From a virus (Duplodnaviria > Caudoviricetes): 48,072 nt of DNA. The translations under genes and the position numbers were made by a program. Shown here one piece after another: positions 8,510 through 44,738 of the stretch (positions within the stretch are counted from its first letter, which is position 1; each line of letters starts with the position of its first letter). The stretch is from the IMG/VR virus record IMGVR_UViG_3300048851_000022, positions 1-48,072 of that record; one strand, written 5' to 3'. The notes beneath the pieces were generated by a model. It saw only the letters and a list, made by a program, of their open reading frames with translations. It was not told where the DNA came from and did no database searches.

Positions 8510-8826
8510 CCGACCTGCAGATGCTGGCCTGCGCCAAGCTGGGCCTGTCCTACACCACCCCGTGGGAGGCGCTCAGCGCCGTTCTCCGGGGCTGGCAGAG
8601 GCTCCAAGGCCTCCCCGTCACCGGGGAGCTGGACGAGCCCACAGTGGCCCTCCTGGGACCGCGCTCGACCCAGGGGCTTGTGCCCCTGTGGTGGCCTCAC
8701 GATGCCGAGCGCGTGATCCGAGAGCGAGTAGGGGACGAGCAGGCGGTTCGCCGCTTCCAGTCCGCCCACCGCATGACACCCACCGGCCACGCCGACGAGG
8801 CGCTGGCCATCGAGCTTGGAGACTGA
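8506..8826 (+). CDS. Stand-alone peptidoglycan-binding (PG_binding_1-like) protein
   Basis: Two motifs, LRGWQRLQGLPVTGELDEPT and AVRRFQSAHRMTPTGHADEA. Confidence 0.75.
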   Translation: MTDLQMLACAKLGLSYTTPWEALSAVLRGWQRLQGLPVTGELDEPTVALLGPRSTQGLVPLWWPHDAERVIRERVGDEQAVRRFQSAHRMTPTGHADEALAIELGD

Positions 8827-12023: not shown

Positions 12024-12877
12024 CCGTCACCCTGCGGGACCTGCCCACCCACGCCAGCTACTCCCAGCTCGACACCTGGATGACGTGCGGGGAGAAGTAC
12101 TGGCTGCAGAAGGCCACCGACATCCCGAACAAGCCATCGTGGGCGCTGCTGGGTGGCAGCACCGTCCACTCCCTGACCGAGGAGATCGACCGCGATCTCT
12201 TCGAGCGAGGTGTGGTATGTGCGGAGGGCGACATCGAGCAGAGGTTCCGGGAGCACCTGGCCCAGCACCTGCGCTCTGAGACCGAACGCAACGGCTACAC
12301 CGAGGACCAGATCATGGCCTCCGGCAGGGCCAGCAAGGCCTGGCCCGAGAAGGAGAACAGGGCCTGGTGGGAACACCACGGCCCGCCGATGATCCGGTCC
12401 TGGATCGAGTGGCAGAAGGTCACCCCCTGGCAGCTCTGGCAGACGCCAGCAGGGGAGTGGGCCATCGAGCTCGAACTGGAAGTCCAGTTCGGCGGCGGTC
12501 CCATCAAGCTGGCCATCGACCGGGTCTACGAGTGGGCCGGGAACCTGATCGTGGTGGACATCAAGTCCGGTCGGGAACCCATCAACCAGTTCCAGCTCGG
12601 TCAGTACGCAGCAGCCATCGAGCAGGAGCTGGGTGTCCGTCCTGGCTACGGCTCCTACTGGATGGCTCGAACCGGTGAGTCCACGGTGGCTCACCCCCTG
12701 GCGCAGTACTCCCAGTCCTACATCGACGCGACGTTCCGCAAGTTCCGGATCGCCAAGGAGCACGGCCTGTTCATGCCCCACCCCTCCAACCTCTGCGGGT
12801 CCTGCGGGGTGAGGGAGTTCTGCACAGCTAAGGGCACCCGAGCCCACGAGATCCCGCGTTCGTACATGGAGGTGTAG
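12020..12877 (+). CDS. RecB-like / Cas4-like PD-(D/E)XK exonuclease
   Basis: SYSQLDTWMTCG, GSTVH, IDRV, VVDIKSG, QLGQY and C-terminal CGSC...C Fe-S ligands. Confidence 0.85.
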   Translation: MTVTLRDLPTHASYSQLDTWMTCGEKYWLQKATDIPNKPSWALLGGSTVHSLTEEIDRDLFERGVVCAEGDIEQRFREHLAQHLRSETERNGYTEDQIMASGRASKAWPEKENRAWWEHHGPPMIRSWIEWQKVTPWQLWQTPAGEWAIELELEVQFGGGPIKLAIDRVYEWAGNLIVVDIKSGREPINQFQLGQYAAAIEQELGVRPGYGSYWMARTGESTVAHPLAQYSQSYIDATFRKFRIAKEHGLFMPHPSNLCGSCGVREFCTAKGTRAHEIPRSYMEV

Positions 12878-13680: not shown

Positions 13681-14202
13681 GTGACCGACTTCAACTTCCA
13701 GCTCAGCACCAAGCTCGCCTCCGGCGCGCTGGTGAACATCCGCGCGATCACTGCGGAAGAGTTCATCGACCACCTCAAGGAGTTCGAGGGCGAGCTGTCC
13801 CAGCTCCTCGTGGACACCGACGCCACCCTGGTGGCCGCGTCCCGCGTGGCCGCTGGTGGCCTGACCGGCATCGCCCCCGCCCCTGCTGCGGTGGCCCAGG
13901 CCCCCGTCGCCCAGGGCTTCGACACCAGCAACCCCCACGGTGGGTTCACGCCCCCGGCTGCCGCCGCTGGCGTCTCGCTTGAAGGCACCGACCGGTTCGG
14001 GAACTCCTACTACCAGGGTCACCCGAAGGCTCCGCTCACCCCGCGAGGACCGGCGCTGCTCAAGTTCGCCACCTCCCGTGAGGGCAAGCCCTACGCGGTG
14101 TTCGTGGACCCCTGCAAGGGCACCCAGTTCCGTGGTGACCGCAAGCCCGCCGACATGCTGGCCGACGACTACAACGCGGCTCGCGGGATCCAGAAGCCCT
14201 GA
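13681..14202 (+). CDS. Hypothetical replication-module protein
   Basis: AAGGAG RBS and GTG at 13681; Ala/Pro linker; directly upstream of the helicase. Confidence 0.65.
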   Translation: MTDFNFQLSTKLASGALVNIRAITAEEFIDHLKEFEGELSQLLVDTDATLVAASRVAAGGLTGIAPAPAAVAQAPVAQGFDTSNPHGGFTPPAAAAGVSLEGTDRFGNSYYQGHPKAPLTPRGPALLKFATSREGKPYAVFVDPCKGTQFRGDRKPADMLADDYNAARGIQKP

Positions 14203-14203
14203 C

Positions 14204-15010
14204 ATGCTGACCGCCTCTCGCGCACTGCAGAAGGCCCGCAACACCGGGCACCCTCTTCCCGAGGTGCCCGAGCTGGCGGGTTTGTACGCCTCGGGGTGTC
14301 GGCCCAAGAAGGGCCAGATGCTCCTGCTCACCGGGATGCCGAAGGCGGGCAAGTCCCTCTTCGGTCTCTGGTGGGTGAAGCAGATGGGTCTGCCAACCCT
14401 CTACTTCTCCGCCGACATGGACTCCCACGAGGCCCTGACCCGGCTGGCCGCGAGCCAGACCGGGACACCCTCGGACATGGTGGCCACCCACCTCCTGCAA
14501 GACGGTGGCCCGGAGTTCTACCAGGAGGCCGTCGAGAACCTCCCGATCCAGTGGAGCTTCGACTCCGCTCCCACCCTGTGGGACGTGGCCGAGGAACTGG
14601 ACGCCTACGTGGAAGCACACGGCGTCTGGCCCGAGGTGATCGTGATCGACAACCTCATGAACGTGGTGGGGGAGAGCGACGGCGACGACCCGACCGTGGG
14701 GATGCAGGGCATCCTCAAGGAACTCCACGGCCTGGCCCGCACGACAGGTGCTGCGATCTTCGTGCTGCACCACGTCTCCGAAGCTGTGCAGACCGACGCC
14801 ACCATCCCGGCTCCAAGACGGGGTGTGCAGGGGAAGGTCAGCCAGCTGCCCGAGATCGTCCTGACCGTGGCGTTGGATCCGTCCAACAACCGGTTCGGGG
14901 TGGCGTGCGTGGCCAACCGTGGTGGGGCCTGTGACCCCACCGGCAAGCGGTTCGTCAAGCTCAAGTCGGAGCCCAACCTCTGCAGGTTCTCGCACTGGAC
15001 GGGGTACTGA
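14204..15010 (+). CDS. DnaB-like replicative helicase (ATPase domain only)
   Basis: Walker A GMPKAGKS, LYFSAD, Walker B IVIDNL, VLHH; ATG at 14204. Confidence 0.85.
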   Translation: MLTASRALQKARNTGHPLPEVPELAGLYASGCRPKKGQMLLLTGMPKAGKSLFGLWWVKQMGLPTLYFSADMDSHEALTRLAASQTGTPSDMVATHLLQDGGPEFYQEAVENLPIQWSFDSAPTLWDVAEELDAYVEAHGVWPEVIVIDNLMNVVGESDGDDPTVGMQGILKELHGLARTTGAAIFVLHHVSEAVQTDATIPAPRRGVQGKVSQLPEIVLTVALDPSNNRFGVACVANRGGACDPTGKRFVKLKSEPNLCRFSHWTGY

Positions 15011-15011
15011 C

Positions 15012-15353
15012 GTGGGCGTGAACGGGGCCAAGGGCGGGCTGTGGGAGCGCAACATCCTGGACTGGCTGCGCAAGGCGGGGTTCGACGCCGAGCGACTCCG
15101 GCTGGCGGGCAAGGAGGATGAGGGGGATCTGGTCGTCAAGGACGGCCAGGCCCGCTACATCATCGAGGCCAAGGACGTGGCCCGCTGGCAGCTCAAGGAG
15201 TGGTGGCGTCAGGCCGTGGTCGAGCGCGACAACTACTGCAAGCACCGGGGTCTGGACCCCACCACCATCATGCCGATGGTGGTCGTCAAGCACCGGGGCA
15301 CCGGCACCGGCAAGGGCTGGGTCATCACGAGCTTGGAGGAGTTCTTCCAGTGA
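15012..15353 (+). CDS. Holliday junction resolvase (Hjc-like PD-(D/E)XK)
   Basis: KG..WER..., D.GDL, IIEAKD pattern. Confidence 0.75.
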   Translation: MGVNGAKGGLWERNILDWLRKAGFDAERLRLAGKEDEGDLVVKDGQARYIIEAKDVARWQLKEWWRQAVVERDNYCKHRGLDPTTIMPMVVVKHRGTGTGKGWVITSLEEFFQ

Positions 15354-15466
15354 GCGGTAGAGGGATCCCCCTGAACGGCAGCCTCGCTGCCTTCTGGGAA
15401 CTGGAACGCCAGTGGGAGATCAACTGCGAGGCCCGCGAGGACGAGGACTGGGAGGGGGACCGGTGA
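15350..15466 (+). CDS. 38-aa hypothetical protein
   Basis: GTGA overlaps at both ends; GGAGG RBS; MSGRGIPLNGSLAAFWELERQWE... Confidence 0.5.
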   Translation: MSGRGIPLNGSLAAFWELERQWEINCEAREDEDWEGDR

Positions 15467-15858
15467 ACCTGCACGCCCGACCGGACCTCAGCAAGGTGCT
15501 CGACCACTACGTGATCGACCACAAGGTCTTCCAGGACGGCAACCAGAAGATCCGTTGCCCCCACCCAGCACACGACGACCGAGACGCTTCCTGCTCCCTC
15601 CGACTGGATGAGGGGGTGTGGAACTGCTTCGCCTGCGGAGAACGTGGCGATGCCATCACCCTGATCCAGCTCATGGAGGGATTCGAGCAAGTTGTTGACG
15701 CCTTCAAGTTCGGCCAAGCGTTCGTCTCTGGAAGCTCTCAGCCGGGAGTGCGAAAGCAACCTCGGGCAGGGGGCGTCCTATCTGGCAAAGCGGGGTATCA
15801 ACCGCGCTACCGCCGAGAGGTTCCGGCTCGGGGTCGTCCCGACCGACCCTTCTCCTGA
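15463..15858 (+). CDS. DNA primase zinc-binding domain (CHC2)
   Basis: CPHPAHDDRDASC...WNCFACGERGDAI. Confidence 0.85.
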   Translation: MNLHARPDLSKVLDHYVIDHKVFQDGNQKIRCPHPAHDDRDASCSLRLDEGVWNCFACGERGDAITLIQLMEGFEQVVDAFKFGQAFVSGSSQPGVRKQPRAGGVLSGKAGYQPRYRREVPARGRPDRPFS

Positions 15859-16339
15859 ACTGCGACCGTTCATCGGTCGCCTCGCAGTCCCGAGCGTCTC
15901 TCGCTCGGGGGTGGAGGGCCTGCGGTTCAAGCTGATCGACGGCAGCGACGGCCCGAAGATGCTGCCCCTGGCAACGGGGGACGTGACCCGGGTCTACTAC
16001 CCGCAGATCCTCTTCGAGCGCACCAGCATCATGGCGATCACCGAGGGGGAGCCCGACGCCTGGGTCCTCTGGCAGTGCGGGATCCCGGCAGTGGGGATCG
16101 TCGGCTCGAACAACTTCAAGAAGCACCACCCCCGGCTCTTCGCCGGGTTCAGCGATGTCCTCGTGTTCGGGGACAACGACGACGCAGGCAGGAAGTTCGC
16201 CAAGCAGGTCGTCGCTGACATCCCGACCGCTCGTGCGGTCATCGTTGGGACCGAGGGCTCCGACGTGAACGACTTCTACATCGCAAACGGAGGAGAAGAC
16301 GGTGGCGCAGAAGCTGTCCGAGATGCTGCAGGACTCTGA
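15692..16339 (+). CDS. DNA primase TOPRIM domain
   Basis: YLAKRGI, ITEGEPDA, FGDNDDAG, DVND. Overlaps the zinc-domain ORF in another frame. Confidence 0.85.
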   Translation: MLTPSSSAKRSSLEALSRECESNLGQGASYLAKRGINRATAERFRLGVVPTDPSPELRPFIGRLAVPSVSRSGVEGLRFKLIDGSDGPKMLPLATGDVTRVYYPQILFERTSIMAITEGEPDAWVLWQCGIPAVGIVGSNNFKKHHPRLFAGFSDVLVFGDNDDAGRKFAKQVVADIPTARAVIVGTEGSDVNDFYIANGGEDGGAEAVRDAAGL

Positions 16340-16697
16340 GATCCAGTACGACATCCACCCGAAGATCATCGCCGAGATCTACAACATCCTCGGGTTCCGG
16401 TTCGAGCGGGTGGGCAAGGACTTCGAGTCCGAGGTCACCGGCAAGGACATCCACAAGCTGGGCGAGTACCTGCTCCACACGGCCACCCGTGGTGTGACCG
16501 AGGGGACCTACGCCACCGCCCGCATGGCGGTCGAGCGTTACGACGAGAAGGAACTCGGTGGTGGGCGCGGTGTCGCCACCTTCGACCTCTACCTCAAGGT
16601 GGGCACCTCCTCCTTCGAGTACCTCGTGCCCGAGGAGCTGGACGACTCCCTCTCCAAGTGGGAGCAGGACGTGCTGGAAGGGTGGACCGAGCTGTGA
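16302..16697 (+). CDS. Hypothetical protein
   Basis: 131-aa ORF with good codon bias; start uncertain (16302 or 16323). Confidence 0.6.
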   Translation: MAQKLSEMLQDSEIQYDIHPKIIAEIYNILGFRFERVGKDFESEVTGKDIHKLGEYLLHTATRGVTEGTYATARMAVERYDEKELGGGRGVATFDLYLKVGTSSFEYLVPEELDDSLSKWEQDVLEGWTEL

Positions 16698-18831: not shown

Positions 18832-19094
18832 GCGAGCCCCTGACTCCTTCCGAGAAGGAGATGGAGTGGTACGAGTCCCAGTGGTGGGAGGAGGCCCAGA
18901 ACGCAGCCGAGGAGGCCGAGGGCCTCGTGCACTTCCTGGGTGACTTCATCGACCACTACGCCAAGGTCGTCCGGGTCAGCCGGTTCACCGACCAGGCGGT
19001 CGAGCGGCTCTCCGCTCTGCACCAGGTGCGCGAGTCCCTGGTCCACGCCTGGGGTCTGAACCCTGCGTTCACCGGCAAGGGTCAGCCCTACTAG
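18828..19094 (+). CDS. Hypothetical protein
   Basis: GTGA overlap; MSEPLTPSEKEMEWY... Confidence 0.6.
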   Translation: MSEPLTPSEKEMEWYESQWWEEAQNAAEEAEGLVHFLGDFIDHYAKVVRVSRFTDQAVERLSALHQVRESLVHAWGLNPAFTGKGQPY

Positions 19095-19882
19095 CCGAAG
19101 ACGACCGTCCTGCGGTCCTCTGCCAGCCAGATCGGCTGGCCGTGATGTCTGGTGGCCTGGATGGCCTGCCAGAGGCTCTCGCGGCCAGCCAGGGGCAGAT
19201 CAGCGGGCCTCCTGATCCGTCGCACCACCGGCACACCAGCCACCAGCAACTGAGGAGAGTCGTGGACCGCCCTGACTGGGACCACTGGGCGATCGGCGTC
19301 GCCCAGGCTGTCGCTCTGCGCAGCGACTGCCTCCGCAGCAAGGTCGGTGCGGTGATCCTGGACCGCGAGCAGCGTGTCGTCAGCGTCGGCTACAACGGCT
19401 ACCCCAGCGGGAAGGCCGCTTGCGGCAGCCAGCAGGGCTGTCCCCGTGGCCGTACCTCGGTGGAACTTCTGCCCCACGGGAGCTCGTACACCAGTCCGGG
19501 GATCGGGCGCTGTCGGGCAATCCATGCCGAATCGAACGCCGTCCTCTACTCGGACCCGCTCCGCAGGCACACGCTCTACGTCACGCGGGAGCCGTGTGAT
19601 GGGTGCTGGGACCTTCTTGCGGGCGCGGGCCTTGCGCGCGTCTGCTGGCTGGGTTCGTCGGGTTTTCTCAGTGACCACCTCTTCGTCAGCGGGTATCAGT
19701 CCCCGCTTGCGTAGGTCTCGGATCGCACCGGTCACCGAATGCTCGCCGTTGGTCATGTTGTACCCGGCGACATGCTTCTCGCCCCGGTACACGTCGCACC
19801 CGTTCCGCCCGGGGATGATCTCTAGCCCCAGGTCCTTGACCGCAGCCTGTAGCTCGCGCGCCGCCTTCTTGAAGCTGCTCAC
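19091..19882 (-). CDS. Protein with an N-terminal ~63-aa HicA/dsRBD-like domain; the rest overlaps the deaminase antisense
   Basis: GAGGAG RBS before GTG. MSSFKKAARELQAAVKDLGLEI...SVTGAIRDLRKRGL has an alpha-beta3-alpha pattern. C-terminal extension doubtful. Confidence 0.45.
   Translation of the reverse strand: MSSFKKAARELQAAVKDLGLEIIPGRNGCDVYRGEKHVAGYNMTNGEHSVTGAIRDLRKRGLIPADEEVVTEKTRRTQPADARKARARKKVPAPITRLPRDVERVPAERVRVEDGVRFGMDCPTAPDPRTGVRAPVGQKFHRGTATGTALLAAASGLPAGVAVVADADDTLLAVQDHRTDLAAEAVAAQSDSLGDADRPVVPVRAVHDSPQLLVAGVPVVRRIRRPADLPLAGRESLWQAIQATRHHGQPIWLAEDRRTVVFG
19262..19714 (+). CDS. dCMP deaminase family protein
   Basis: SDC...KVGAVI, GYNG, HAESNA and PCDGC zinc motifs; GAGGAG RBS before GTG 19262. 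Confidence 0.85.
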   Translation: MDRPDWDHWAIGVAQAVALRSDCLRSKVGAVILDREQRVVSVGYNGYPSGKAACGSQQGCPRGRTSVELLPHGSSYTSPGIGRCRAIHAESNAVLYSDPLRRHTLYVTREPCDGCWDLLAGAGLARVCWLGSSGFLSDHLFVSGYQSPLA

Positions 19883-19949
19883 CGGTGACTCCTCGTGATC
19901 GGGTGGTCGCTCGCTCTCACGTTACCCAGTGGACGATCAGTGTGGCCGG

Positions 19950-20510
19950 GGTGGACAACAGGAGACCTGGCCCAGGCCAGTAGCCGACACCGTGTCGTCT
20001 CCCGCTGAGGTACTTGGCCCGTACCCGGCGAGGCGGGGGAGTCGGTGAGTTCTCGTCCAGTCCCCGCGTGGTCATGCAAGGCCAGGAGCTGACGCGCGCA
20101 CCTCCCTCCCCCCTTACCCCCCGGAGGGGATCTCGGAGCCCACCCGAAGCGATGGCGGTCAGCCATGCGGGCTGTGCCACTTCTGCCCGGAGGCGTGCGT
20201 GGGTTAACCCTGGCAGTTGAGTGCCGGGCAGGGTAAGGTGCGAGCTGTCTCTGAGGGCCGCCAAGCTTTTGAGACTGCTCGATCCCGGACTCCCTAGTAC
20301 CGGGACTCCCCTCTGGGGGAGCACGCTTCGGGACGACGGTGTCCCGGGGCAAACTGGGTCAGGTCAGCCCGTGTTGCCTCCTGCGTGGGTACTGGGCGTG
20401 TCGCGGGTCCTTGTCGGACTCTCCGCGTACACTCTTGAGTAGCACCTGCAGCCACCGATCCTGGTTCGTAGGTGGAAGGCCCTGGGGGTTCCAGCCCCGG
20501 GGCCTTCGTC
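19950..20510 (+). ncRNA. Candidate large structured non-coding RNA
   Basis: Nested long-range stems, at least six internal hairpins, a potential pseudoknot, G-U polarity favouring the + strand, a 3' terminator-like hairpin and no credible ORF. Confidence 0.6.
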
Positions 20511-20514
20511 TGTT
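20475..20514 (+). terminator. Terminator-like hairpin closing the ncRNA candidate
   Basis: GAAGGCCCTGGGG-GTTCCAG-CCCCGGGGCCTTC (13 bp, one U-G) followed by GTCTGTT. Confidence 0.55.
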
Positions 20515-20567
20515 CCAGGGAACCTAGCGGATCACCGGCACCCTCCGTGGGAGGTGCGTGTCGTAGC

Positions 20568-20927
20568 GTGTCGCGGGTGACCGAGATCCTCAACGACTCT
20601 CGCCAGTGGTGCGGCAAGTCCTACCCCTGGGACGACGAGGGCAAGGCCTGGACGATCAAGTCGGGGACCAAGGACGGGGACGACTGGGTCGTCATGGTGA
20701 CCCAGTTCATCTACGCGTCCGGGGTGCTGATCCGGTACGGCGACGACCTGGGTGGCTTCAACTTCTACAGCGACCGCTGGTGCTACCACCTGCCGAGCGC
20801 GGCCTTCGCTGCCGCTGAGGCCTGGGATCCGGAGACCCAGGACGAGCCCGAGGGGTGGCACCGGCACCCTCAGAGCGGGCGTCGTAGGACCAACGGTGAC
20901 CCCCGCGAGGAGTACGTGGCCCCGTGA
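20568..20927 (+). CDS. Hypothetical protein
   Basis: GGAGG upstream; Trp-rich, ending EPEGWHRHPQSGRRR; start uncertain. Confidence 0.6.
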   Translation: MSRVTEILNDSRQWCGKSYPWDDEGKAWTIKSGTKDGDDWVVMVTQFIYASGVLIRYGDDLGGFNFYSDRWCYHLPSAAFAAAEAWDPETQDEPEGWHRHPQSGRRRTNGDPREEYVAP

Positions 20928-27663: not shown

Positions 27664-27936
27664 GTCTAGTCACACTCCTGATGTCAGTTGAAAGGGGCAT
27701 CGAGGGCACGAAGATGGACACCCTCCGTGGATAGGCGTGATCTTGTGAATCACCCTAGAGCCGTGGAGCGCGTTGATCCTCGCATCGCGCCCTCTCTTGC
27801 CCCCGTCACGTAGACGGGGCGTGAGAGGAAAGATCGCTGTTGAGTTCTCAAGAATCGTGCAAGGTCGTCCGCTGTTCGGTCAGACACTGGCAAGCCAGCC
27901 GATACGACGTTCGCGTCATCCCCGTTGCATGAGTAG

Positions 27937-27965
27937 ATCTTGGCACACATCCCACACCCTGTCAA
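27937..27965 (-). promoter_or_regulatory. Leftward early SigA-type promoter with an operator-like motif in the spacer
   Basis: TTGACA-N17-CAAGAT on the minus strand; spacer GGGTGTGGGATGTGTGC. Confidence 0.7.
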
Positions 27966-27969
27966 GCTG

Positions 27970-29190
27970 GCCTCTCCCCCCGTGGTGCTGACAGCGTTCC
28001 TGCCCCACTAGGTGGGTGCTCGGTCGGCCGATCTGCTGGGTGAGCTGGCCCCGTGGGGCCTGCCCGCTTGCCTGGTGTGTGGAGTTGTGATCTTCAGAAC
28101 CGATCACCGTTGCGGTGATGAGGAGGACTCTGCACCCTCCGGAGCTGGTGTGTCAACTCCACTCATGCACCGATGCCCTGAGCTGGGCCGATGCCATCGG
28201 TGGCAAGCCTGCGGAGCTTGCGGAGCAGGCGCGGCAGGGAGTCAGCCCGCTAGGGCTGCTGCTCTCATCCATCCCCCCCCCCGCAGCGACTCCTCCCCTG
28301 GACTGTCAGCACACGAGCGTGCTGCAGGACGGCTGGTGCTGGCTGGTGCCCCCTCTCCCCCACCTGGTGCCCACCTGGTGCGTGTCCTGCCCCGTCCCAC
28401 GGGGCATGAGTAGGGCTCTACTCCCTGGTGAGCGGTGGGTGTGGGTGTGATCAGCCGGTCACAGGCTGGCATCACTGCAGGTCAGGGAGCTGAGGGTAGC
28501 CTACCCTTACCAGTCACCGTCCGTGTAACCGGAACCACAGTCCGTGACATCCCCATCGACCGGGGGATGCTTAACCGCGACCCCCACCCCTCACATCTAG
28601 AGTCTGCCGAGAAGATTTTTCCCGGTTGGTCGGGGGCATGTCGGGGCTGTGGACAACGGGCCGTCCTACACCTGCATCGTCGCAGGTCAGGGGGTGTTTC
28701 CACAGGGAGGCTCGGAGAGTCTCCGATCGTGGTCCAGAGAACTTGTATAGATGAGGGCTGCTTCGCTGCAGCCCCTCGCGCACAGCATGAGCCGGGTCGA
28801 GTTGAAGCCATCGACCCGGCAGGCCTCACGGCCTGCTGGTCACGGATGAGAGCCCGGCAGAGAAGCCGGGCATCCAGGCAGCTCCCAGGGTCGCTGCTTC
28901 CTCTTCATCGACTGGAAGAGCCGGGGCCTTGAAGCCCCGGGTATCCGGAGTACCCCTGGGAGAGCCGCTGCTGGCCCCTGAGGGCCGCTGAGGAGTGGTC
29001 TGGCATGAACCCCCAGACGAGGCCCTAGCGGGCCTCCTAGAGGCACTGGGGGCCGTAGAGGCCGGAGAGGGTCGTAGCCCTCATGGGACCGCGTCGTTGC
29101 CAGGTGTAGGACGGCCGCCGCCGCTCATGATCCAGCCCCGTTGCGTCGAGTGTGGGATGAGGGTCTGCATCAGGCAGACCCATGAGCGGG
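27970..29190. other. Long low-coding region between the divergent early and late arms (candidate physical genome end / origin)
   Basis: No ORF with a clear RBS or codon bias; short repeats and hairpins; directly upstream of the terminase. Confidence 0.45.
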
Positions 29191-29200
29191 GGAGTGGGGC

Positions 29201-29440: not shown

Positions 29441-29593
29441 AACGCCCTGTTGACCGGCGCTGGATGTGACCGGCCAGGGAAGGCCCCTCGGGGCCAAGTC
29501 GTGAAGAGGTCGATCCGTAGGTAACACCCCGCGTGCAAGAAGAACGGATGCCGCACCCCGGGGGACCTCACCCAACTTCGATAGGGGATACCC

Positions 29594-31492
29594 GTGGCGA
29601 ATCGCCCGCAAGGCCTTTCTAAGGCAGAAGCCCAGAAGAAGGTCTTGGCGGGAATCGCTGCTGGCCTTTCCGTCGCGGAAGCCTGCGAGCAGGCTCAGCG
29701 CACCGTGAAGGCGCACGAGAACTGGCGTGCGACCGATCCGGACTACGCCCGTGCCGTCGATGAAGCCCGGTTCAACCGCGCCCAGGCAGTGAAGCAGGGC
29801 AAGGACGCCGATGTCTCCAACATCGACTTCGAGACCTTCTGCCGCGACTTTCTCAACCAGCCCCTCTACCCCCACCAGAAGATCTGGGTGGACGTGCTGG
29901 AAGGAAAGAAAGAGCCCGAGCTGCACGACTCGATGACGTACAAGCCGGGGGACAAGTCCCGGGTGCTCATCAACGTGCCCCCCAACCACGCCAAGTCGAT
30001 GACGCTGACGATCCAGTACGCCCTCTACCGGCTGTGCATGGACCCCAACATCCGGATCATCATCGTCTCCAAGACCCAGCAGTTGGCCAAGGACTTCCTC
30101 TGGGCCATCAAGCAGCGACTCACTTCTCCGAGGTGGGCCGCGCTACAGGCCGCGTTCGGTGGCCCCAACGGGTTCAAGAGTTCCGAGAGCGGCTGGTCCG
30201 CCGACCGCATCTACCTTTCCGACGAGCTGCGAACAAGCGGCGAGAAGGACCCCAACATCCAGGCCATCGGGCTTTCCGGCCAGATTTACGGGGCAAGAGC
30301 TGATTTGATCATCGTTGACGACGCGGTGACCCTGACCAACGCCGCCGAGTACGAGAAGCAGATCCGCTGGCTGACCCAGGAGGTGGCCTCCCGTCTGCCC
30401 GGTGCCGGTGGCCGACTGCTGGTGATCGGCACCCGCGTGGCCCCGGTGGACCTCTACTCCGAACTCCTCAACCCCGACCGGTTCATCTCCGGCAAGAGCC
30501 CCTGGACCCACCTGGCCATGCCAGCGGTCCTGAGCTACGCCGAGGATCCCAACGACTGGGAGACCCTGTGGCCGGTGGCCCAGGAACCCTGGGACGGGTC
30601 GGAGAACGCGGAGCCCGACGAGAACGGGAACTACCCCCGCTGGGACGGCTACCACCTGAGCCGGGTCCGGGACCAGATCCCAGCCCGCATCTGGGCTCTG
30701 ACCTACATGCAGCTCGGGGTGAGCGAGGACAGCGTCTTCGACCCGATCTGCATCAACGGCTCCCAGGACAAGCGCCGCCGTCCCGGCCTACTGGTGCCGG
30801 GTGCGATCGACCACCCTCGCCGGGGGATGGAGGGGCTCTACACGATCCTCTCGCTCGACCCCGCGATGGCCGGTGACTCCTTCGCCATCGTCATGGCGGT
30901 GGACCGCCAGACCCAGAAGCGGTACGTCCTGCAGGCCTGGGTCCAGCACAGCCCCACCCCGGAGTGGATCCGCAACCTCATCAAGAGCGTGGCGGTGGAG
31001 TACTCCGTCAACGAGGTCGTCGTGGAGACCAACGCCTTCCAGCTCTTCCTCTTCCACGACCCCGAGGTCAACGAGTTCCTCCGTCAGCGGGGGATCCGGA
31101 TGCAGCCGCACTACACGGGCCGCAACAAGCAGGACCCTGATTTCGGCGTGGCCTCCGTCGCCCCGCTGTTCGGGTCCACCCGAGGGGTCAACGACGGCGC
31201 GGGCCGCAAGGTCCACTCCGGTGACAACCTGATCCACCTTCCCCGGGTCGATGACAGCGAGGGCCTCAAGGCCCTGGTCGAGCAGCTCATCACCTGGCAA
31301 CCGGGGGTTCGCGGGAACAAGCTCAAGATGGACGGCCCGATGGCTCTGTGGTTCGCGGAACTCCGCGCCAGGGAGATGTTGCACGTCGGCAAGAACATCC
31401 AGCACTTCACCAAGAACCCCTACGCCTCCAAGCGCGACCGCGCTTCGAGGGTGGTCGTGCCGTTGGCCGACTACGGCAGCTACACAGGCTAG
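29594..31492 (+). CDS. terL: Terminase large subunit with an N-terminal HTH-like extension
   Basis: Walker A variant PPNHAKS, GARADLIIVDD, IGTR, nuclease LDPA ... ETNAFQ ... D.PMALW. Confidence 0.9.
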   Translation: MANRPQGLSKAEAQKKVLAGIAAGLSVAEACEQAQRTVKAHENWRATDPDYARAVDEARFNRAQAVKQGKDADVSNIDFETFCRDFLNQPLYPHQKIWVDVLEGKKEPELHDSMTYKPGDKSRVLINVPPNHAKSMTLTIQYALYRLCMDPNIRIIIVSKTQQLAKDFLWAIKQRLTSPRWAALQAAFGGPNGFKSSESGWSADRIYLSDELRTSGEKDPNIQAIGLSGQIYGARADLIIVDDAVTLTNAAEYEKQIRWLTQEVASRLPGAGGRLLVIGTRVAPVDLYSELLNPDRFISGKSPWTHLAMPAVLSYAEDPNDWETLWPVAQEPWDGSENAEPDENGNYPRWDGYHLSRVRDQIPARIWALTYMQLGVSEDSVFDPICINGSQDKRRRPGLLVPGAIDHPRRGMEGLYTILSLDPAMAGDSFAIVMAVDRQTQKRYVLQAWVQHSPTPEWIRNLIKSVAVEYSVNEVVVETNAFQLFLFHDPEVNEFLRQRGIRMQPHYTGRNKQDPDFGVASVAPLFGSTRGVNDGAGRKVHSGDNLIHLPRVDDSEGLKALVEQLITWQPGVRGNKLKMDGPMALWFAELRAREMLHVGKNIQHFTKNPYASKRDRASRVVVPLADYGSYTG

Positions 31493-31500
31493 GAGGCTCT

Positions 31501-33336
31501 GTGGCTTACGACGAAGCAACCGCGCTCACAGCGATGCAGCGGATACTTCCCCGGGTCCAGGCCCTGCAGAACCGCTACGCCCAGCGCGACAAGCGCGCTG
31601 CGGACGTGCAGGCGGTTCGCCGTGGGGACTTCGACAAGGTCGCCCCGGACCTGTTCTCCGACGACTGGCCCCGACCCATCGTGGCCAACACCGTGGACCA
31701 GACCGCGCGAGACATCGCTGCGGTCCTGGCCCCGCTCCCGTCCTTCAACTGCAGCAGCAGCTCCATGCTGGGGGACCGGGCTCGCAAGTTCGCGGACAAG
31801 CGGACGAAGATCGTGAACGGCTACATCCAGCAGTCGCGCCTCTCGGCGCAGATGTCGCGGGGTGCCGACCAGTACATCACCTACGGGATCCTCGCCTTCT
31901 GCGTGGAACCCGAGTTCGAGGGCAAGACCCCTCGGATCGTGGTCGAGGACAGTGCGGGCATGTACCCCCTCTGGGACCGCTACGGTCGCACGGTGGCCGT
32001 GGCCCGGGTGTTCTACCGGGACCAGCTCGAACTGATCGCTGAGTACCCCCACCTGGCGAACAAGCTCAAGGCCCCCGGTGTCGCCGTGGGCTCGCGGCTG
32101 GTCAAGGTCATCAAGTACAACGACGACGACTACTGCGCCCTGTGGTGCCCCGACGCCCAGGACTGCCTCTTGGAGTTCGGGCCGAACCCCCTCGGCAAGT
32201 GCTGGTACGTCTGCATCAAGCGCCCCGGCCTGGACGAAGAGGTGCGCGGGCAGTTCGATGACCTGATCTGGGTCCAACTGGCGCTCAACCGGTTCCAGAT
32301 GCTCGCGCTCGAAGGCGCGGACACCGCCGTGCGGGCTCCGCTGGTCGTCACCCCCGACGTGGGGGAGATCCCCGTTGGTCCTGGTGCGGTCATCCGCGCC
32401 CAGGGTGGCGTCAACTCGGTCGGTCGTGCTCGACTCGACCTGCCGCCCCAGACCTGGCAGGGAGTCCAGTACCTCAAGAGCGAGCTGACCGGTGGCATCG
32501 CAGGTGCCGACGCGCGCAACGGGCAGGTGGACGCCAGCGTCATCACCGGCAAGGGCGTCCAGCAGCTCATGGCCGGGTTCTCCACCATGATCTCCGATGC
32601 GCAGGTGCAGTTCCAGGTGGGCCTGGAACTCGTGGCCCAGAAGTGCTTCGAGATGGAGGAGAAGCTCTGGCCCAACCGGGAGCGGACCATCCGGGGCAAC
32701 GACTCCGGTGTGCCCTACGAGATCACCTACGTGGCCTCCAAGGACATCAAGGGCGACCACACGGTGGAGTGCACCTACGGGATGCTCGCCGGTCTGGACG
32801 CCAACCGCGCCCTGGTCTACACCCTGCAGGCCCAGGCCGCTGGCCTGCTCTCCAAGGACTTCTCCCGCCGTCAGCTCCCGGCAGGCATCAACGCCGCCGA
32901 GGAGGGCAAGAAGATCGAGGTGGAAGCCATGCGGGACTCGCTCCTGCAGGCCATGTCGGCCCTGGCCCAGTCCACCCCGCAGCTCATCGCCAACGGCCAG
33001 GACCCCTCCCAGATCCTCGGGGTCGTCGCTCAGGTCACCGACGCGCTGCAGAAGAACAAGCCGCTGGAACAGATCGTCATGGAGGCCTTCCCCCCGCCCC
33101 CGCCCCCGGAGGCCGCGCCGGAGGCCCAGCAGCAGATCGACCCCCTGACCGGCCAACCGGTCGAAGGTGACGCCACGGGCTTCAACTCCTCGGGCCTTCC
33201 TGGCGAGATGCAGTTGGGACAGGCCACCGAAGGGCCGGGTGGACGCCCGGACCTGAATCAGTTCTTCGCTGGCATGACCCAGGGCGGTCAGGCCAACCTC
33301 GGCATGAGCGTCTCGCGCATGTCGCCCGCTCAGTAG
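31501..33336 (+). CDS. Portal (head-tail connector) protein
   Basis: 611 aa directly after terL; AGGAGG RBS before GTG 31501; Pro/Gln-rich C-terminus as in podovirus portals. Confidence 0.8.
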   Translation: MAYDEATALTAMQRILPRVQALQNRYAQRDKRAADVQAVRRGDFDKVAPDLFSDDWPRPIVANTVDQTARDIAAVLAPLPSFNCSSSSMLGDRARKFADKRTKIVNGYIQQSRLSAQMSRGADQYITYGILAFCVEPEFEGKTPRIVVEDSAGMYPLWDRYGRTVAVARVFYRDQLELIAEYPHLANKLKAPGVAVGSRLVKVIKYNDDDYCALWCPDAQDCLLEFGPNPLGKCWYVCIKRPGLDEEVRGQFDDLIWVQLALNRFQMLALEGADTAVRAPLVVTPDVGEIPVGPGAVIRAQGGVNSVGRARLDLPPQTWQGVQYLKSELTGGIAGADARNGQVDASVITGKGVQQLMAGFSTMISDAQVQFQVGLELVAQKCFEMEEKLWPNRERTIRGNDSGVPYEITYVASKDIKGDHTVECTYGMLAGLDANRALVYTLQAQAAGLLSKDFSRRQLPAGINAAEEGKKIEVEAMRDSLLQAMSALAQSTPQLIANGQDPSQILGVVAQVTDALQKNKPLEQIVMEAFPPPPPPEAAPEAQQQIDPLTGQPVEGDATGFNSSGLPGEMQLGQATEGPGGRPDLNQFFAGMTQGGQANLGMSVSRMSPAQ

Positions 33337-33346
33337 GAGGTAGTTC

Positions 33347-33805
33347 ATGGCAGGACGCGGTGGCTACCAAGCCCCAGCGAAACCTGCGGCGGTGTCTGGC
33401 CCCGGTGCGCTCTCGCAGCGCACCGACGGCCAGCCTGTCCGCGACATCACGGGAGGGGACTACGGGGACGCCTCGGAGTTCCGCAACCTGCAGCAGTCCG
33501 CGCCACTGGCCAAGGGACCGAACCTCAGCCGTGGGGGAGCCCAGGTGGGCACCCCCGCCCCGCAGGTCACCCCGTTCGGCGCAGCGAGCACCGAGCCCGG
33601 TACGCCGGTCACGGCGGGCGCGGAGATGGGCGCAGGCCCTGGCCTGAGCGCCATCGGTCTGGGCAACCAGAACTACAAGGACAACCTGGCGCAGGACAAC
33701 GAGTACATGCGCCAGTACCTGCCCGCGCTCCTGTCGGCCACGACCGACGAGAACGCCTCGCCCAACTTCCGGCGCTACGTCCGGTCCCTGATCGCCCGCA
33801 TGTGA
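33347..33805 (+). CDS. Small virion-associated protein
   Basis: RGGYQ.P..PA.VSGPGALSQRTDG motif; AGGAGG RBS; post-portal position. Confidence 0.7.
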   Translation: MAGRGGYQAPAKPAAVSGPGALSQRTDGQPVRDITGGDYGDASEFRNLQQSAPLAKGPNLSRGGAQVGTPAPQVTPFGAASTEPGTPVTAGAEMGAGPGLSAIGLGNQNYKDNLAQDNEYMRQYLPALLSATTDENASPNFRRYVRSLIARM

Positions 33806-33815
33806 GGAGCACCTC

Positions 33816-36800
33816 TTGAGTTTCTGGTCTCGACTGGGGGACGTGGGTCACAACCTGAACCCCGTGAACTGGATCCTCCCCTCCATCGCGTGGGGTACGG
33901 CTAAGGCGCTGGGTGACGACGACGTGGCCCTGCGGGCCACGCACGACTTCCAGGAGAACGTTCAGCGCGCCGGGAAGGTCGCTGACGCGACCGGCCTGGA
34001 CACCGTGGCCGAGAAGGTCGGCCCCCCGCTGCACTGGCTCTACAACAACATCTGGAACCGCCCGGCCTCCACGCTGGCCCAGATGAACACCAACGTCCAG
34101 AACCACTCCCAGGGCATCGGGTCCTACGTGGACGGCGGGGAGTGGAAGACGGCCTGGGACAACTCCAACTGGTACTCCTCCGGGCAGGCCATCACCGACC
34201 ACGCTGCTGCGCTCAAGCGGTCGCTGGGCCAGGGCCTCACCGCCGACCCCGACGCGCTGGACGCCCAGTACAAGCGAGAGTACGAAGAGTCCAAGGGCGA
34301 GCAGCGCAAGGCCTACTACATCGTCAACCAGTACGGGTTCGAGGAGGAGGTCGCTGAGAACGACCCCCGCCTGCAGGACCCCAAGAACGGGCCGCACAGC
34401 AGGAACGCCTCCGATGGTCTGAGCGGCGGTCTGGCCGGGAACCCCTACGCCACGCTGGAAGAGCGCAAGGCGTTCTACCAGACCACCTGGTCTGGGCGGA
34501 TGACCTCCGGCTCGATCGACTTCGTCTCCAACATCGCAGCCGACCCGCTGAACAAGATCCTCCCGGGGATCGGCCAGGTCGGTAAGCTGAACCGGGGCGT
34601 GCTCACCAACGCCGACGAGCTGGGCAAGGCCCAGGCCGCGTTGGAGACCGGCGAGCGGGTGCGGGCGAGCAACTTCGACCAGGGCTCCCTGAGCGAGCGG
34701 GCCGAGTCGGCCTTCCGGGTCAACCGGTTCCGCGAGAACACCCTCAAGCTCTACGACCAGGTGGACAAGGCGGGTACCGCCGCCGAGGTCATGAAGCTGC
34801 CGATGTTCTTCAACACCGCCGACAAGGGTGCGCTGGCGTTCGCGTTCGCGCGAACCAACGCCATCGCGGACCCCACCGAGAAGCTCATGACGCGCAACAA
34901 CATCATGGGTGCGATCACGGGGGACGCCACCGCGCTGCAGAAGCTGGCCACCGAGCACGCCGACCTGAGCGCGGAACTGCGTCGTCTCGGTGAGGCACCG
35001 GAGGCCATGAAGGCCCCGGAGCCCAGGTTCACCTCGGCCAACGCCGCAGAGCGGTCGGCCTACTGGATGGAGCAGGGGCGGATCGCTGAGGTCAACGCCA
35101 AGAAGGACGCGATCGAGTACCAGCTCGACTCGGCCAACGCGCTGTTCCGCAACGCCGGGGCCTACACCGACCGGGGTGTCCTGCCCGCGATCGTGCAGCG
35201 CGGGGTCACCGAGCTGCGCAACGGGCGGACCATCCTCAAGGACTCGGCCACCGGTCGCACGGTGCACGTCGTCAACGCCTTCGACACCGTCCGTCCCTCC
35301 TACATCAACCTCACCAACGTGGGGGAGGGCGCGACCCAGCTCCGCAACAACCTGAACCGGATCCCCAACGTCTCGCGCGAGCAGGTGGAGATCTGGACCA
35401 ACGGGTTCCTCAACGCCCCCACCCGGGCCGCGCGGCAGTCCGTGGTCCACCAGGCCACCGAGGAGATGTTCTCCGCTGCCGGTCGCCAGTTCGGGATCTC
35501 GACCGAGAAGGTCGAGGAGATCATGAAGGTGGCGGGGCAGGTCTCCGCCGACGTGCGCAAGCAGCTCGACACCGGGCGACGGCTCTACTCGGCGGCGGAC
35601 GGTCGCACCGCGACGGTCATCGACCACAACGGTGAGGCCATCGCCTACGACAAGCCGCTGCTGAACACGATGCTGGAAGACTCCACCCACATCCCCGACG
35701 CCGACCTCATCAACGCCACGGTGAAGGCGCTCAAGGACGTGGACCTGTCCAAGGGCGCAGGGGATGCCTACCAGGCCCGTGTGATGGCCAAGAAGGCCCT
35801 GGACGAGGTGACCGGGGCCTGGTCCTCGGCCATGCTGCTCCGTCCCGCGTACGGGCTCCGTGTGGCCGCTGACGACCAGGCCCGCACGCTCGCCCTGCTG
35901 GGCGGGCACGTCTACACCCAGACCGCGCTCGAAGGCATCAAGAACTTCGTGGGCAACTGGCGGCGCTACGCCTACAAGGACTTGCAGGCGGCGGGCGCTC
36001 AGCGCGCCGGGATCGACTACCGGATCCAGCGCCTGGAAGCGGAGATCAAGGGCCTGCGCAACGGTGGCCCGACGTGGCAGCAGACCGGCCCCAAGGTCAG
36101 CCGCGAGGAGTTCGAGAAGAACCCCGAGGTGCTCTACCACAGCAGCACCAAGCTCCCGACCGAGCTGGACAACACCCGGGGGATCTACACCTCCGACACC
36201 GAGGTCTCGGCCCAGCGGTGGGGGAGCCAGGCTGCCAACGGGTGGGCGCGTCCCTCTGGCGCGACCAAGGACGCCTTCACCCAGCTCCGCGAGGCCGCTC
36301 GGGGCAAGCGCCAGATCCAGCGTCGTCTCTCCGGGGGCAACTGGGTCAACACCCCGTTCTCCTCGGTCTCGGCCAGCGACATCGAGAACGGCCTGATCCG
36401 CTTCCGACCCAAGTCGGTCAAGCCGTCGAGCACCTCCATGACGGTCTACGGCCAGCCGCTGGACCTGCGCTCCTACGACCAGATCCCCGCCGACCTCAAG
36501 ACGGCGATGGGCTGGCAGAACCGCGACGAGTGGAGGGCCTGGATCCAGAACAAGGTCCACCGCCAGGACCAGGACATCCTGCTCGACTACATGGAGTTCA
36601 ACGGCTACGGGCGGGCCTACCTGGACCGGCGACTCAACGGGTCCAAGGACGAGATCCTCGTCAACCCGACCTACGCCAACTACGGCGGCAAGGATGCGTA
36701 CGCCAGCCAGCACGTCTCCAAGAAGGGCGCGCGGATCGTCAACCGCCCCGACGCCAAGCGCACTGCGGAGATCCGTGACCGTCGTCGTCAGATCGCCAAG

Positions 36801-39227: not shown

Positions 39228-39228
39228 G

Positions 39229-40041
39229 ATGCCGATCGACACCTCCGGCACCGAGGAAGACGAAGACCAGAGCGCACAGGACGAGATCGACGCTCAGAAG
39301 ACCAGGATCGCCAGCCCCCAGCAGTCGCGCGCCGAGAACTTCGACGCCCGGGGGAAGACGACCTACAAGAAGGGCAAGCAGGTCCAGGCCAGCGCGCCGT
39401 CCTACCAGACGGTGGGGGCCACCAAGGCCCAGTGGATGACGATGACCCCGACCGAGCGGGCCAAGTGGGGCCAGCACCTGCTGGCGATGGGCATCATCAC
39501 CGCCGCCCAGGCCACCGACCCCAGCACGCTGGCCAAGTACTGGTCGGCCTACGCCGAGGAGGCCGGAGCCTCCTTCGCGGCCGGGAACAAGAAGGCCTCC
39601 CCCTACTCGGTCTCTCTGGCCGACGGGGAGGTCATCAAGCTCCTCGGAGGAGTCGATGGTGGGACAGGGGGCAGTGGCGGGATCCCAGACGGGGACCAGA
39701 CCACGACCTCCACCAGCTTCGACATCACCAACCCCGCCGAGGCGGCGTCGAAGATCCAGGACGTGTTCCGAGCGGCGTTCGGTCGAGAGGCCGCACCGGG
39801 TGAGCTCAGCCAGCTCGCCGCCTCCCTGCAGGAGGCCGAGTACGCCAACCCGGTGAACACCGACCAGGTGACCACCTACGCGGGCGGGAACGCCGTGGCG
39901 CAGAAGACCACCTCCACGGGCGGTCTGGACTCCACGTACTACCTGACCCAGAAGGCCAAGTCGGCTCCGGAGTACGGGGCCTACCAGGCCGCGACCACCT
40001 ACGCCAACGAGCTGTTCAAGGCCATCGCATCTCCGGTCTGA
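39229..40041 (+). CDS. Probable internal virion protein
   Basis: 270-aa ORF between internal-protein genes. Confidence 0.6.
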   Translation: MPIDTSGTEEDEDQSAQDEIDAQKTRIASPQQSRAENFDARGKTTYKKGKQVQASAPSYQTVGATKAQWMTMTPTERAKWGQHLLAMGIITAAQATDPSTLAKYWSAYAEEAGASFAAGNKKASPYSVSLADGEVIKLLGGVDGGTGGSGGIPDGDQTTTSTSFDITNPAEAASKIQDVFRAAFGREAAPGELSQLAASLQEAEYANPVNTDQVTTYAGGNAVAQKTTSTGGLDSTYYLTQKAKSAPEYGAYQAATTYANELFKAIASPV

Positions 40042-40057
40042 CAGAGAGGACCCCCCA

Positions 40058-41113
40058 GTGGCTGTGACCTTCGACGCCCTCTTCGCGGCCCTGGGGGGCC
40101 AGGAGTCGGGCGGTAGCTACGCCGCGACCAACGGTCGCACCGGCGCATCGGGCAAGTACCAGATCATGCCCGCCAACGTGGTGCCCTGGGCCAAGCAGTA
40201 CCTCGGCCAGAACATCACCCTGCAGCAGTACAAGGGCTCGCCCCAGTTGCAGGAGTCGCTGGCCAAGGCGGTGTTCCAGAGCTACTACAACAAGTACGGG
40301 GAGCGGGGCGCGCTGAGCGCCTGGTACTCCGGTTCGCCCAACAAGGCGAACAACTACAACAAGTTCCGGCCCAACGAGCCCTCCGTGGGCCAGTACGTGG
40401 ACCAGGTGCTGGGCCGGATCGGGCAGGGCAGTGGGTCACCGGGAGCCAGCGGCTCCCTGACCAGCATCCCGAACGAGGTCGTGGACAACACGGCCAAGGA
40501 GTCCCAGGTCGAGTCCCTCATCCCGAGCAACAGCGACAGCTACGCGATGATGAGCGCCGCCGTGGGGGCGGGCAACACCGCCCCCGGGATCGAGGCGGGT
40601 ACCCGGGCTCCGGGGTACGACACCGTGGCGCAGGGCGCACAGCTCGCCAGCCAGGTGACGGCACCCAGCTCGGTGACGATCCCCTCCGTGACCGACGAGG
40701 GGACCTACAACCAGATCGCCGGGGTGGGTCAGGGGACCACCACAGGTGCACGAGCGAGCATCATCAACCTGGCCAAGCAGTTCCTCGGGACGCCCTACAA
40801 GTGGGGCGGCACCGCGCCTGGCGGGTTCGACTGCAGTGGGTTGCTCTACTACCTGTTCAAGCAGAACGGGATCACCATCCCGCGCGTGAGCTACCAGCAG
40901 GCCACCTACGGGAAGCGGTCGGCGGTCGCCAACCTGCAGGCCGGGGACCTGGTGGCGTGGGACAACTCCTCGCGCAACAACGGAGCCGACCACATCGCCC
41001 TCTACCTCGGCAACGGCCAGATCCTGGAAGCTCCCAAGGCCGGGGTGCCAGTCCGAATCCGATCCCTGGGCAAGGGGGACGCCTCCGCTTGGGGCGTCCA
41101 GATGAACTACTAG
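40058..41113 (+). CDS. Virion-associated peptidoglycan hydrolase: lytic transglycosylase-like plus NlpC/P60
   Basis: QESGG...GASGKYQIM...AWYSG; GTPYKWGG...FDCSGL...HIALYLG. Confidence 0.88.
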   Translation: MAVTFDALFAALGGQESGGSYAATNGRTGASGKYQIMPANVVPWAKQYLGQNITLQQYKGSPQLQESLAKAVFQSYYNKYGERGALSAWYSGSPNKANNYNKFRPNEPSVGQYVDQVLGRIGQGSGSPGASGSLTSIPNEVVDNTAKESQVESLIPSNSDSYAMMSAAVGAGNTAPGIEAGTRAPGYDTVAQGAQLASQVTAPSSVTIPSVTDEGTYNQIAGVGQGTTTGARASIINLAKQFLGTPYKWGGTAPGGFDCSGLLYYLFKQNGITIPRVSYQQATYGKRSAVANLQAGDLVAWDNSSRNNGADHIALYLGNGQILEAPKAGVPVRIRSLGKGDASAWGVQMNY

Positions 41114-41120
41114 GAGACCC

Positions 41121-42014: not shown

Positions 42015-42015
42015 G

Positions 42016-42951: not shown

Positions 42952-43023
42952 CACCAGCCGCTTCGTCGGCTGGTTGCGGGGGTACTGAGCTGAGACCCCC
43001 TGCTTCGACCGGGACGCCGGTCA

Positions 43024-43083
43024 GGGGTGAATGGACGGCGCGGTGAGCCGCGTCACTGGGGTTCGATTCCCCGGCACCCCGCC
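43024..43083 (+). ncRNA. tRNA-like element lacking a D arm (not a canonical tRNA)
   Basis: GGGGTG/CACCCC acceptor-like stem stacked on a CTGGGG-TTCGATT-CCCCGG T-arm, with a single internal hairpin. Confidence 0.5.
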
Positions 43084-43199
43084 CCATCGAGGATCGACCG
43101 GCCCCTCGTGGCGACATCGACCGGTAGCAGGAGCCACTCCCACTTCCCCTGGTGACGAGTGCGGTCTGCGTTCTGCTGAGAACAGGGAGACAGCTCATC

Positions 43200-43688: not shown

Positions 43689-43728
43689 CGGTAGGGGCCT
43701 CATCCCCTTCCAGTAGAACGGACCAACG

Positions 43729-44691: not shown

Positions 44692-44701
44692 TCTGACTCG
44701 T

Positions 44702-44738
44702 AGAGAGGCCCTCATCGTACGCGGTGGGGGCCTCTTTT
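44702..44738 (+). terminator. Intrinsic terminator after the capsid gene
   Basis: AGAGGCCCTCATCG-TACG-CGGTGGGGGCCTCT-TTT. Confidence 0.8.

Follow-up and report, generated by a model that had tools for sequence, protein, structure and literature searches.

A conserved structured element in a temperate actinophage that may serve as an RNA-controlled origin for plasmid-like lysogeny

The DNA analyzed here, which we call the window, is a complete virus record of 48,072 bp with direct terminal repeats, and it raises the question of what occupies a gap of ~690 bp (19883-20570) between a small leftward ORF on one side and two rightward ORFs on the other. Its terminase is 43-44% identical to those of the Streptomyces phages FlowerPower and WRightOn, and the window also encodes portal and capsid proteins, a tyrosine recombinase, a repressor, a helicase, a primase, and three sigma-like proteins. 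We read it as a temperate, podovirus-type actinophage. A dCMP deaminase gene just precedes the gap. A first-pass annotation, made from the letters alone, had placed in the gap one large plus-strand noncoding RNA, closed by three nested helices and folded into a pseudoknot. A structured noncoding element that is conserved and uncatalogued does lie here, but three parts of that reading lack support: its pseudoknot with the three closing helices, the assignment of the long part to the plus strand, and the idea of one single RNA. The gap instead holds two conserved structured elements, one long and one small, and our tentative preference, which we put somewhat below an even chance, is that they form an RNA-controlled replication origin for plasmid-like lysogeny as an extrachromosomal circle.

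A protein search of GTDB genomes yielded one relative, from Kineococcus sp. NPDC059986: a contig of 48,871 bp (L153, hereafter the Kineococcus phage) that is collinear with the window at ~70-84% identity. It matches the gap in three pieces (E values of 4e-5, 1e-11, and 3e-18), and none of the gap ORFs of at least 20 aa has a matching ORF in it. Four-fold degenerate sites in two genes common to both phages are 58% (67/116) and 55% (32/58) identical, and noncoding blocks of 10 to 15 nt that are invariant despite this divergence point to selection. The features of the locus are as follows.

19142..19714, plus strand: dCMP deaminase, left anchor of a variable slot, syntenic in L153 and in a second relative (L004)
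19685..19882, minus strand: small basic ORF adjoining the element, weakly HicA-like; 42% identical to its L153 counterpart; PHROG 2089 at E 0.031
19955..20427, no strand assigned: long conserved structured element, ~475 nt; homologue at L153 13205-13672
19955..19981, plus strand: two invariant 5' blocks (12 nt and 14 nt), the latter forming an inverted repeat; identical in L153 at 13205 and 13219
19982..20197, no strand assigned: variable middle, ~215 nt, with hairpins in both phages and no alignment between them; carries the 5' arm of the first-pass pseudoknot
20201..20240, plus strand: invariant 10-nt palindrome GGGTTAACCC, a small hairpin in which one pair is compensatory, and a purine-rich run of 15 nt, also invariant
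20242..20280, no strand assigned: hairpin A, 10-bp stem with four compensatory changes and an invariant CGCCAA loop; predicted from the window alone and kept in L153
20284..20304, no strand assigned: hairpin B, invariant 5-bp stem; 11-nt loop, 10/11 identical
20308..20319, no strand assigned: hairpin C, C-run/G-run with a 4-nt loop
20329..20346, no strand assigned: hairpin D, 6 bp with two compensatory changes
20402..20427, no strand assigned: hairpin F, TTGTC loop and 3' bulge; 7/9 pairs compensatory
20428..20433, plus strand: predicted -10 hexamer TACACT of a putative promoter, identical in L153 at 13963; a short inverted repeat overlaps downstream
20441..20515, plus strand: predicted small RNA, ~75 nt, a hairpin followed by a terminator-like hairpin; candidate countertranscript
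20520..20534, minus strand: invariant 15-nt block, identical in L153 at 14058

Forty pairs of the long element, in helices registered by hand between the two sequences, comprise 24 that are unchanged, 14 that are compensatory, and 2 that are broken. Among the 15 changed pairs that are paired in the window, 14 are still paired in the Kineococcus phage (null mean 7.2, p = 2.6e-4), and the core alone keeps 7 of 8 (p = 0.023). Most of the counted helices recur in folds of the window alone, so selection bias is limited, though not removed; the lower stem of hairpin F, whose register is the least sure, gives 5 of the 14 compensatory pairs. The retained changes altered both sides, all as Watson-Crick swaps, and because neither G-U nor A-C occurs among the changed pairs, strand, and RNA versus DNA, are not fixed for the long element. 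Should the idea of an origin fail, what is left is still a structured family of ~475 nt that no catalogue lists and that compensatory changes support.

Nine of the ten helices named in the first-pass annotation are fully complementary as placed, including the pseudoknot CCTTACC/GGTAAGG; in the tenth, the third closing helix (19986-20004/20329-20343), 8 bp form in register before a bulge is needed. None of the three closing helices is kept in register in the Kineococcus phage, where their 3' strands differ, and the local hairpin D takes the place of the third. The pseudoknot likewise loses its register, with one mismatch and one G-U in 7 bp of a poorly aligned stretch. The inner hairpins fared better in part: GTCTC/GAGAC is kept, TCCCGG/CCGGGA retains five of six pairs, and CTCCCC/GGGGAG retains its CCCC/GGGG core, but CTGCCCGG/CCGGGCAG is not in register. 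Ensemble pairing probabilities were 0.0 for GCTGAC/GTCAGC and for CCCTCC/GGAGGG and 0.07 for the third closing helix.

The plus strand of 19950-20510 folds better than its dinucleotide shuffles (z = -3.63, 0/100), and the minus strand does so as well (z = -2.92, 0/100). The preference for the plus strand over 19956-20376 (z = -4.21, 0/40 shuffles, versus -1.31, 4/40) was not repeated with other bounds (19950-20427, -2.98 plus and -1.86 minus, 25 shuffles each) or in the L153 homologue (-2.64 plus and -3.87 minus, 25 shuffles each), and neither these scores nor the wobble pairs settle the strand of the long part. Three 150-nt plus-strand windows inside 19951-20400 were unremarkable (z of 0.22, 1.02, and 0.62) when set beside a mean of -0.94 over 278 such windows in the first 41.7 kb (12 shuffles each), and 20088-20238 gave -0.72.

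The last 90 nt of the RNA first proposed make up a separate promoter-terminator unit that lies ~290 nt further off in the Kineococcus phage, so the single-RNA reading is unsupported. This right-hand part folds well (20377-20510, z = -4.36). All eight changed pairs of the small unit are kept in the Kineococcus phage (8/8, p = 2.1e-4), six of them through G-U on the plus strand, which supports a plus-strand small RNA. A sigma-70 scan found no promoter at the TACACT hexamer. On the other strand, TAGGTT (minus strand 20526-20521) is a candidate -10 for a leftward RNA that would start at ~20514. In the Kineococcus phage a conserved 89-aa ORF, which the window does not have, lies between the two elements with its ATG directly 3' of hairpin F; the elements are therefore separable, and a leftward primer would be ~290 nt longer there. 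The ORF is 81% identical in one relative, and P0003 and P0004 are two further carriers. A 167-nt contig from a soil RNA library is identical to 20259-20425, at a depth of 2.5; it is unstranded and possibly DNA. Three identical contigs, two of them in neighboring genes, came from the same run (X2) between 17500 and 23000, at depth 2-3, and none came from 29500-48000; neither strand nor level can be read from such contigs, and a lack of coverage is no proof of anything.

Comparison with catalogued RNAs agreed with the first-pass annotation, in which no hallmarks of tmRNA, RNase P, or group I/II introns had been recognized. No Rfam 15 family, including GOLLD, ROOL, OLE, raiA, and the riboswitches, reached its gathering score in the window or in L153, and the five matches in the window at E values up to 10 were all weak. 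Rfam ruled out likenesses to RNase P, tmRNA, T-box RNAs, and introns, and ARAGORN returned nothing at the element. The small unit weakly matches RF00236, the ctRNA of pGA1, over 20444-20520 (at 21.5 bits, below the gathering score of 45). The sampled sets searched contained no third homologue. blastn against phages (50,697 records) and plasmids gave no real homologue, and four pattern scans of viral contigs (3, 1, 12, and 54 loci) gave matches that were all attributed to chance by inspection and profile. The element was not found in the best 80 of 140 loci neighboring the phosphoesterase, 59 viral and 5 metagenome loci neighboring the deaminase held no third member, and the two flanking ORFs used as bait returned one locus each and no further member. 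Five of 30 host-family genomes besides G001 matched the terminator hairpin only, and nine of 401 genomes of the phylum besides G001 had short matches in apparent coding DNA. The covariance model R3, built from the window and L153, gave one candidate match besides G001 among 151 genomes of the order, at 19.2 bits (E 0.007), and its 16.2-bit match to L096 was not convincing. Since the genomes searched are samples, the absence holds for those searched. Searches of the openly accessible literature gave no description of the element.

A role as ribozyme, decoy, or anti-defense RNA is possible, although nothing tested points there, and the surroundings in the genome speak more for a part in replicating or maintaining the prophage. 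The second relative, L004, is 67-79% identical to the window in shared genes and does not have the gap sequence. After the same deaminase, its slot carries short repeats, a ParA gene (AAA_31, E 9e-44), an ORF of 109 aa, and a Rep-like ORF with an HTH_36 match (E 5e-10), and two tRNA genes lie nearby. In the window, in L153, and in L004 alike, the frame of the tyrosine recombinase stays open for more than 340 codons. Neither the window nor the whole Kineococcus contig showed a ParA or ParB-like gene, and tblastn with the L004 ParA, the L004 109-aa ORF, and the Alma ParA returned nothing at E 0.1 in either. There is no Rep initiator gene among the 46 larger window ORFs scanned; the L004 Rep-like protein had no match in the window and a single one, 28 residues long (E 0.006), in another part of the Kineococcus contig. 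Cumulative GC skew does not turn at the element. The Kineococcus phage makes up a separate contig of 48,871 bp; its two ends share 95 nt, which lie within a gene of the tail region. Comparison of the host with 2.2 kb surrounding the recombinase of this phage gave no match resembling an attachment site, and the longest exact match, of 23 nt, is coding on both sides. The overlap and the missing attachment-like match fit a free circle, although an induced integrated prophage can look alike.

If the two elements form an origin, a long leftward RNA would start near 20514 and extend for a predicted ~560 nt in the window. Its fold would keep a hybrid with the template and prime host DNA synthesis, comparable to ColE1 RNA II. 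The 75-nt plus-strand RNA, complementary to the 5' end of the long RNA, would block that fold and set the copy number. The recombinase might resolve multimers or offer a second, integrative route, and the small neighboring protein might bind RNA or stabilize the replicon. The two elements, their covariation, the strand of the small unit, and the slot content of L004 are observed; the leftward promoter, the primer, its control, and the extrachromosomal state we infer. The slot content of L004, the circle of the Kineococcus phage, and a layout that echoes the RNA origins of cluster A mycobacteriophages support the proposal. The main objections are the ORF between the elements in the Kineococcus phage and the lack of Par genes; the leftward promoter, moreover, is one 6-nt motif, and the long element could be read from either strand. 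The intact recombinase, the GC skew without a turn, and the failure of profile and covariance models to link the element to cluster A also count against the proposal.

Other readings of the locus share part of this evidence. The long element could be a stand-alone, large plus-strand RNA of a new class that acts in trans as a ribozyme, a decoy, or a scaffold for protein binding and might self-pair by way of the invariant palindrome, with the small RNA as an unrelated neighbor. Invariant unpaired blocks of 10 to 15 nt against a four-fold site identity of 55-58% speak for such an RNA, as do the z-scores over 19956-20376 (plus -4.2, minus -1.3), the persistence of the element where the downstream ORF is absent, and the two tRNA genes carried by the same variable slot region in L004. 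We consider it unlikely; the closing helix and pseudoknot are not conserved, the strand asymmetry is reversed in L153, no Rfam family or catalytic motif was recognized, and two members are all that the searches found. A bolder proposal, unlikely in our estimation, is that the element founds a class of ornate phage RNAs unrelated to known origin RNAs, which would assemble through its palindrome and loops, be switched by the antisense RNA, and serve defense or the upkeep of the prophage together with the small protein, which is RNA-binding-like. A leader under antisense control is rather unlikely: the leftward transcript would encode a HicA-like protein that the small RNA silences, forming an addiction or anti-phage module, or, alternatively, the element would lead the plus-strand 89-aa ORF of L153. 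The small ORF and its ribosome-binding site at the same position in both phages, the ATG directly after hairpin F, and the weak countertranscript match at 20444-20520 (21.5 bits, gathering score 45) are in keeping with a leader. Set against it are a protein that has neither a Pfam match nor a histidine common to both copies, a frame without a stop, more than 600 nt with invariant loops where attenuation needs less, and the absence of the 89-aa ORF from the window.

The long element might not be RNA at all and could act as folded single-stranded or cruciform DNA (a priming, lagging-strand initiation, or protein-binding site), with the small unit alone transcribed. None of its 14 retained changes passes through a G-U step, compared with six such steps in the small unit, several invariant blocks are palindromic, and shuffles are beaten on both strands. 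Fifteen changed pairs are few, however, the unaligned stem extensions of the window use G-U on the plus strand, and the soil RNA-library contig covers 20259-20425, though this 167-nt contig is unstranded, has a depth of 2.5, and is possibly DNA; we regard folded DNA as distinctly improbable. Very improbable is the chance folding of a GC-rich spacer with ordinary promoters and terminators. The unremarkable local 150-nt z-scores, a middle of 215 nt without alignment, and helices registered by hand in two sequences would suit it, but 14 of 15 and 8 of 8 changed pairs are kept in the long element and the small unit (p of 2.6e-4 and 2.1e-4), and 7 of 8 in the core (p of 0.023).

HicAB modules pair a HicA domain, which has a catalytic histidine and a dsRNA-binding-domain-like fold, with an adjacent HicB. 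A HicAB identity of the neighboring protein is not supported: neither the window protein (19685..19882) nor its L153 counterpart has a Pfam HicA match, and no histidine is common to both. Pfam gave no match of any kind for the window protein, an atlas search gave none that was usable, and only the small protein of L004 scores as HicA (E 0.025). The frame of the small ORF has no stop and continues antisense to the deaminase down to 19091. It is open for more than 190 codons antisense to the deaminase in both phages (window 19091-19882, minus; L153 12252-13133, minus), and its L153 version finally joins, in the same frame, an ORF of the helix-turn-helix type.

The closest functional parallel to the proposed origin lies in cluster A mycobacteriophages. 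In those that do not use RepA, ~600 bp upstream of parA are required for stable lysogeny, suffice for plasmid replication without parABS, and yield RNA in the reverse direction, according to the passages of Wetzel et al. (2020, PMC7157519) considered here. RedRock, Alma, Gladiator, LadyBird, and Et2Brutus carry such RNA-based origins, which stand beside parABS and replace the integrase (PMC7157519); the same passages give no RNA structure, start site, or control RNA for them. We compared 18 cluster A origin loci (L244-L246 and L257-L271). At their right-hand end come, in order, a hairpin, a -10, a short RNA whose first letters are often RGCACC, a T-run-bearing GC hairpin, and a conserved block of the form GTAAC...GCGTGTCG, and the corresponding parts of the locus in the window follow in the same order. 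As in cluster A, a temperate actinophage carries 600-700 bp that are noncoding, with a long covarying part followed by a promoter-terminator unit; about 600 bp have no shared ORF, no Rep initiator is present, and neither the window element nor the cluster A origins are in Rfam. An NGCCAM hairpin loop followed by a CCCGG-type hairpin occurs in the window and in some cluster A members, and phage Vanisoa has the same two hexamers as the window, 11 nt apart. Unlike the cluster A origins, the element has no parABS, its phage keeps a recombinase and podovirus-type head genes, and its junction architecture is different. In the cluster A loci themselves, the core covaries (11 of 38 pairs have compensatory changes) and a small rightward promoter-terminator unit is present; 10 of the 12 broken cells in that core are A-C on the plus strand, which fits an RNA made from the reverse strand.

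Four descriptors built on these likenesses fit 6, 5, 1, and 3 of the 18 origins, and each matches the window once, at the element, compared with 56, 170, 0, and 0 matches in 1.62 Mb of other loci. The one that joins the loop, the -10, and RGCACC fits 3 of 18 origins, the window once (20412), and nothing in the 1.62 Mb. Two of the four match L153, and the two with the loop term miss it. All were composed after the likeness had been seen, one being widened to fit the window, and they are therefore a lead and not a test. Profile HMMs from 3, 16, and 18 cluster A origins missed the element, as did covariance models of the cluster A right module and core run unfiltered over 89.6 kb; model R3, from the window and L153, missed all 18 cluster A origins, and blastn in 50,697 phage records showed no homology of the element to known origins. 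The top match of a cluster A small-RNA model in the 89.6 kb fell just upstream of the L004 Rep-like gene (E 0.07). Because of the HMM and covariance misses, the missing ParA, and the intact recombinase, we do not file the element under the cluster A family; at best, it may work like those origins without being a member.

Among other known systems, ColE1 offers a similar arrangement of RNAs. Its RNA II is ~555 nt and its RNA I ~108 nt long, and replicons of this type depend on a persistent RNA-DNA hybrid, RNase H cleavage, and extension by Pol I. A predicted long RNA whose 5' end faces a short one resembles RNA II and RNA I (discussed in the passages of PMC7157519 considered here), but the resemblance is one of predicted geometry, the long RNA here is itself predicted, and its length would differ by ~290 nt in L153. 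G-runs and C-runs were listed in the element, and no hybrid-forming pair was identified among them. The small unit resembles the RF00236 plasmid countertranscripts in being a two-hairpin RNA of similar size with a terminator end; unlike the RF00236 type, it is not accompanied in either phage by a rep gene downstream of the predicted leftward leader. The large ornate phage RNAs GOLLD, ROOL, and OLE (PMC12286853) are, like the element, large, helix-rich, noncoding, and prophage-borne, and the invariant palindrome could permit self-pairing. In contrast to them, the element has no conserved closing helix or pseudoknot and no sign of high abundance, and a dedicated small promoter-terminator unit abuts it.

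Among the papers returned by searches of the openly accessible literature, RNA-initiated prophage replication in Actinobacteria is shown for cluster A mycobacteriophages only. An origin at this locus would add a second example, unrelated in sequence to the first, from a phage of podovirus type whose host has been cultured, and would make the mechanism testable by comparison. The predicted two-RNA layout extends to the cluster A origins, where it could be put to the test at once. A replicon free of Rep and Par could, if the proposal is true, serve actinobacterial vectors.

Several further observations concern the surroundings of the element and the rest of these genomes. A 13-nt exact direct repeat (20396-20408 and 20566-20578), which includes the GCGTGTCG motif that ends cluster A origins, flanks the small-RNA unit, and a 13-bp complement (20094-20106/20549-20561) joins the variable middle, in a part without alignment to L153, to the likely ribosome-binding region of the next gene. 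The gene 3' of the element (window 20568-20927; L153 14581-14913) is common to both phages in opposite orientation. L004, which bears a recombinase, also has ParA, a Rep-like HTH gene, and two clusters of short CTAG-rich repeats within 13690-16400, where a hairpin at 16046-16089 resembles the cluster A small-RNA terminator. ARAGORN made a tRNA-like call with an unreadable anticodon, and without Rfam support, at 43010-43084 of the window, before the scaffold gene. Another ~1.5 kb of the window without a clear ORF (27700-29200), before the terminase, is conserved in parts in the Kineococcus phage and carries a pair of leftward promoter-like sites (TTGACA) along with many hairpins (z = -5.3 for 28801-28950). 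The highest local folding scores in the scanned part of the window are at 33601-33750 (z = -9.7), 12301-12450 (z = -8.7), and 8551-8700 (z = -6.6), with 12 shuffles each.
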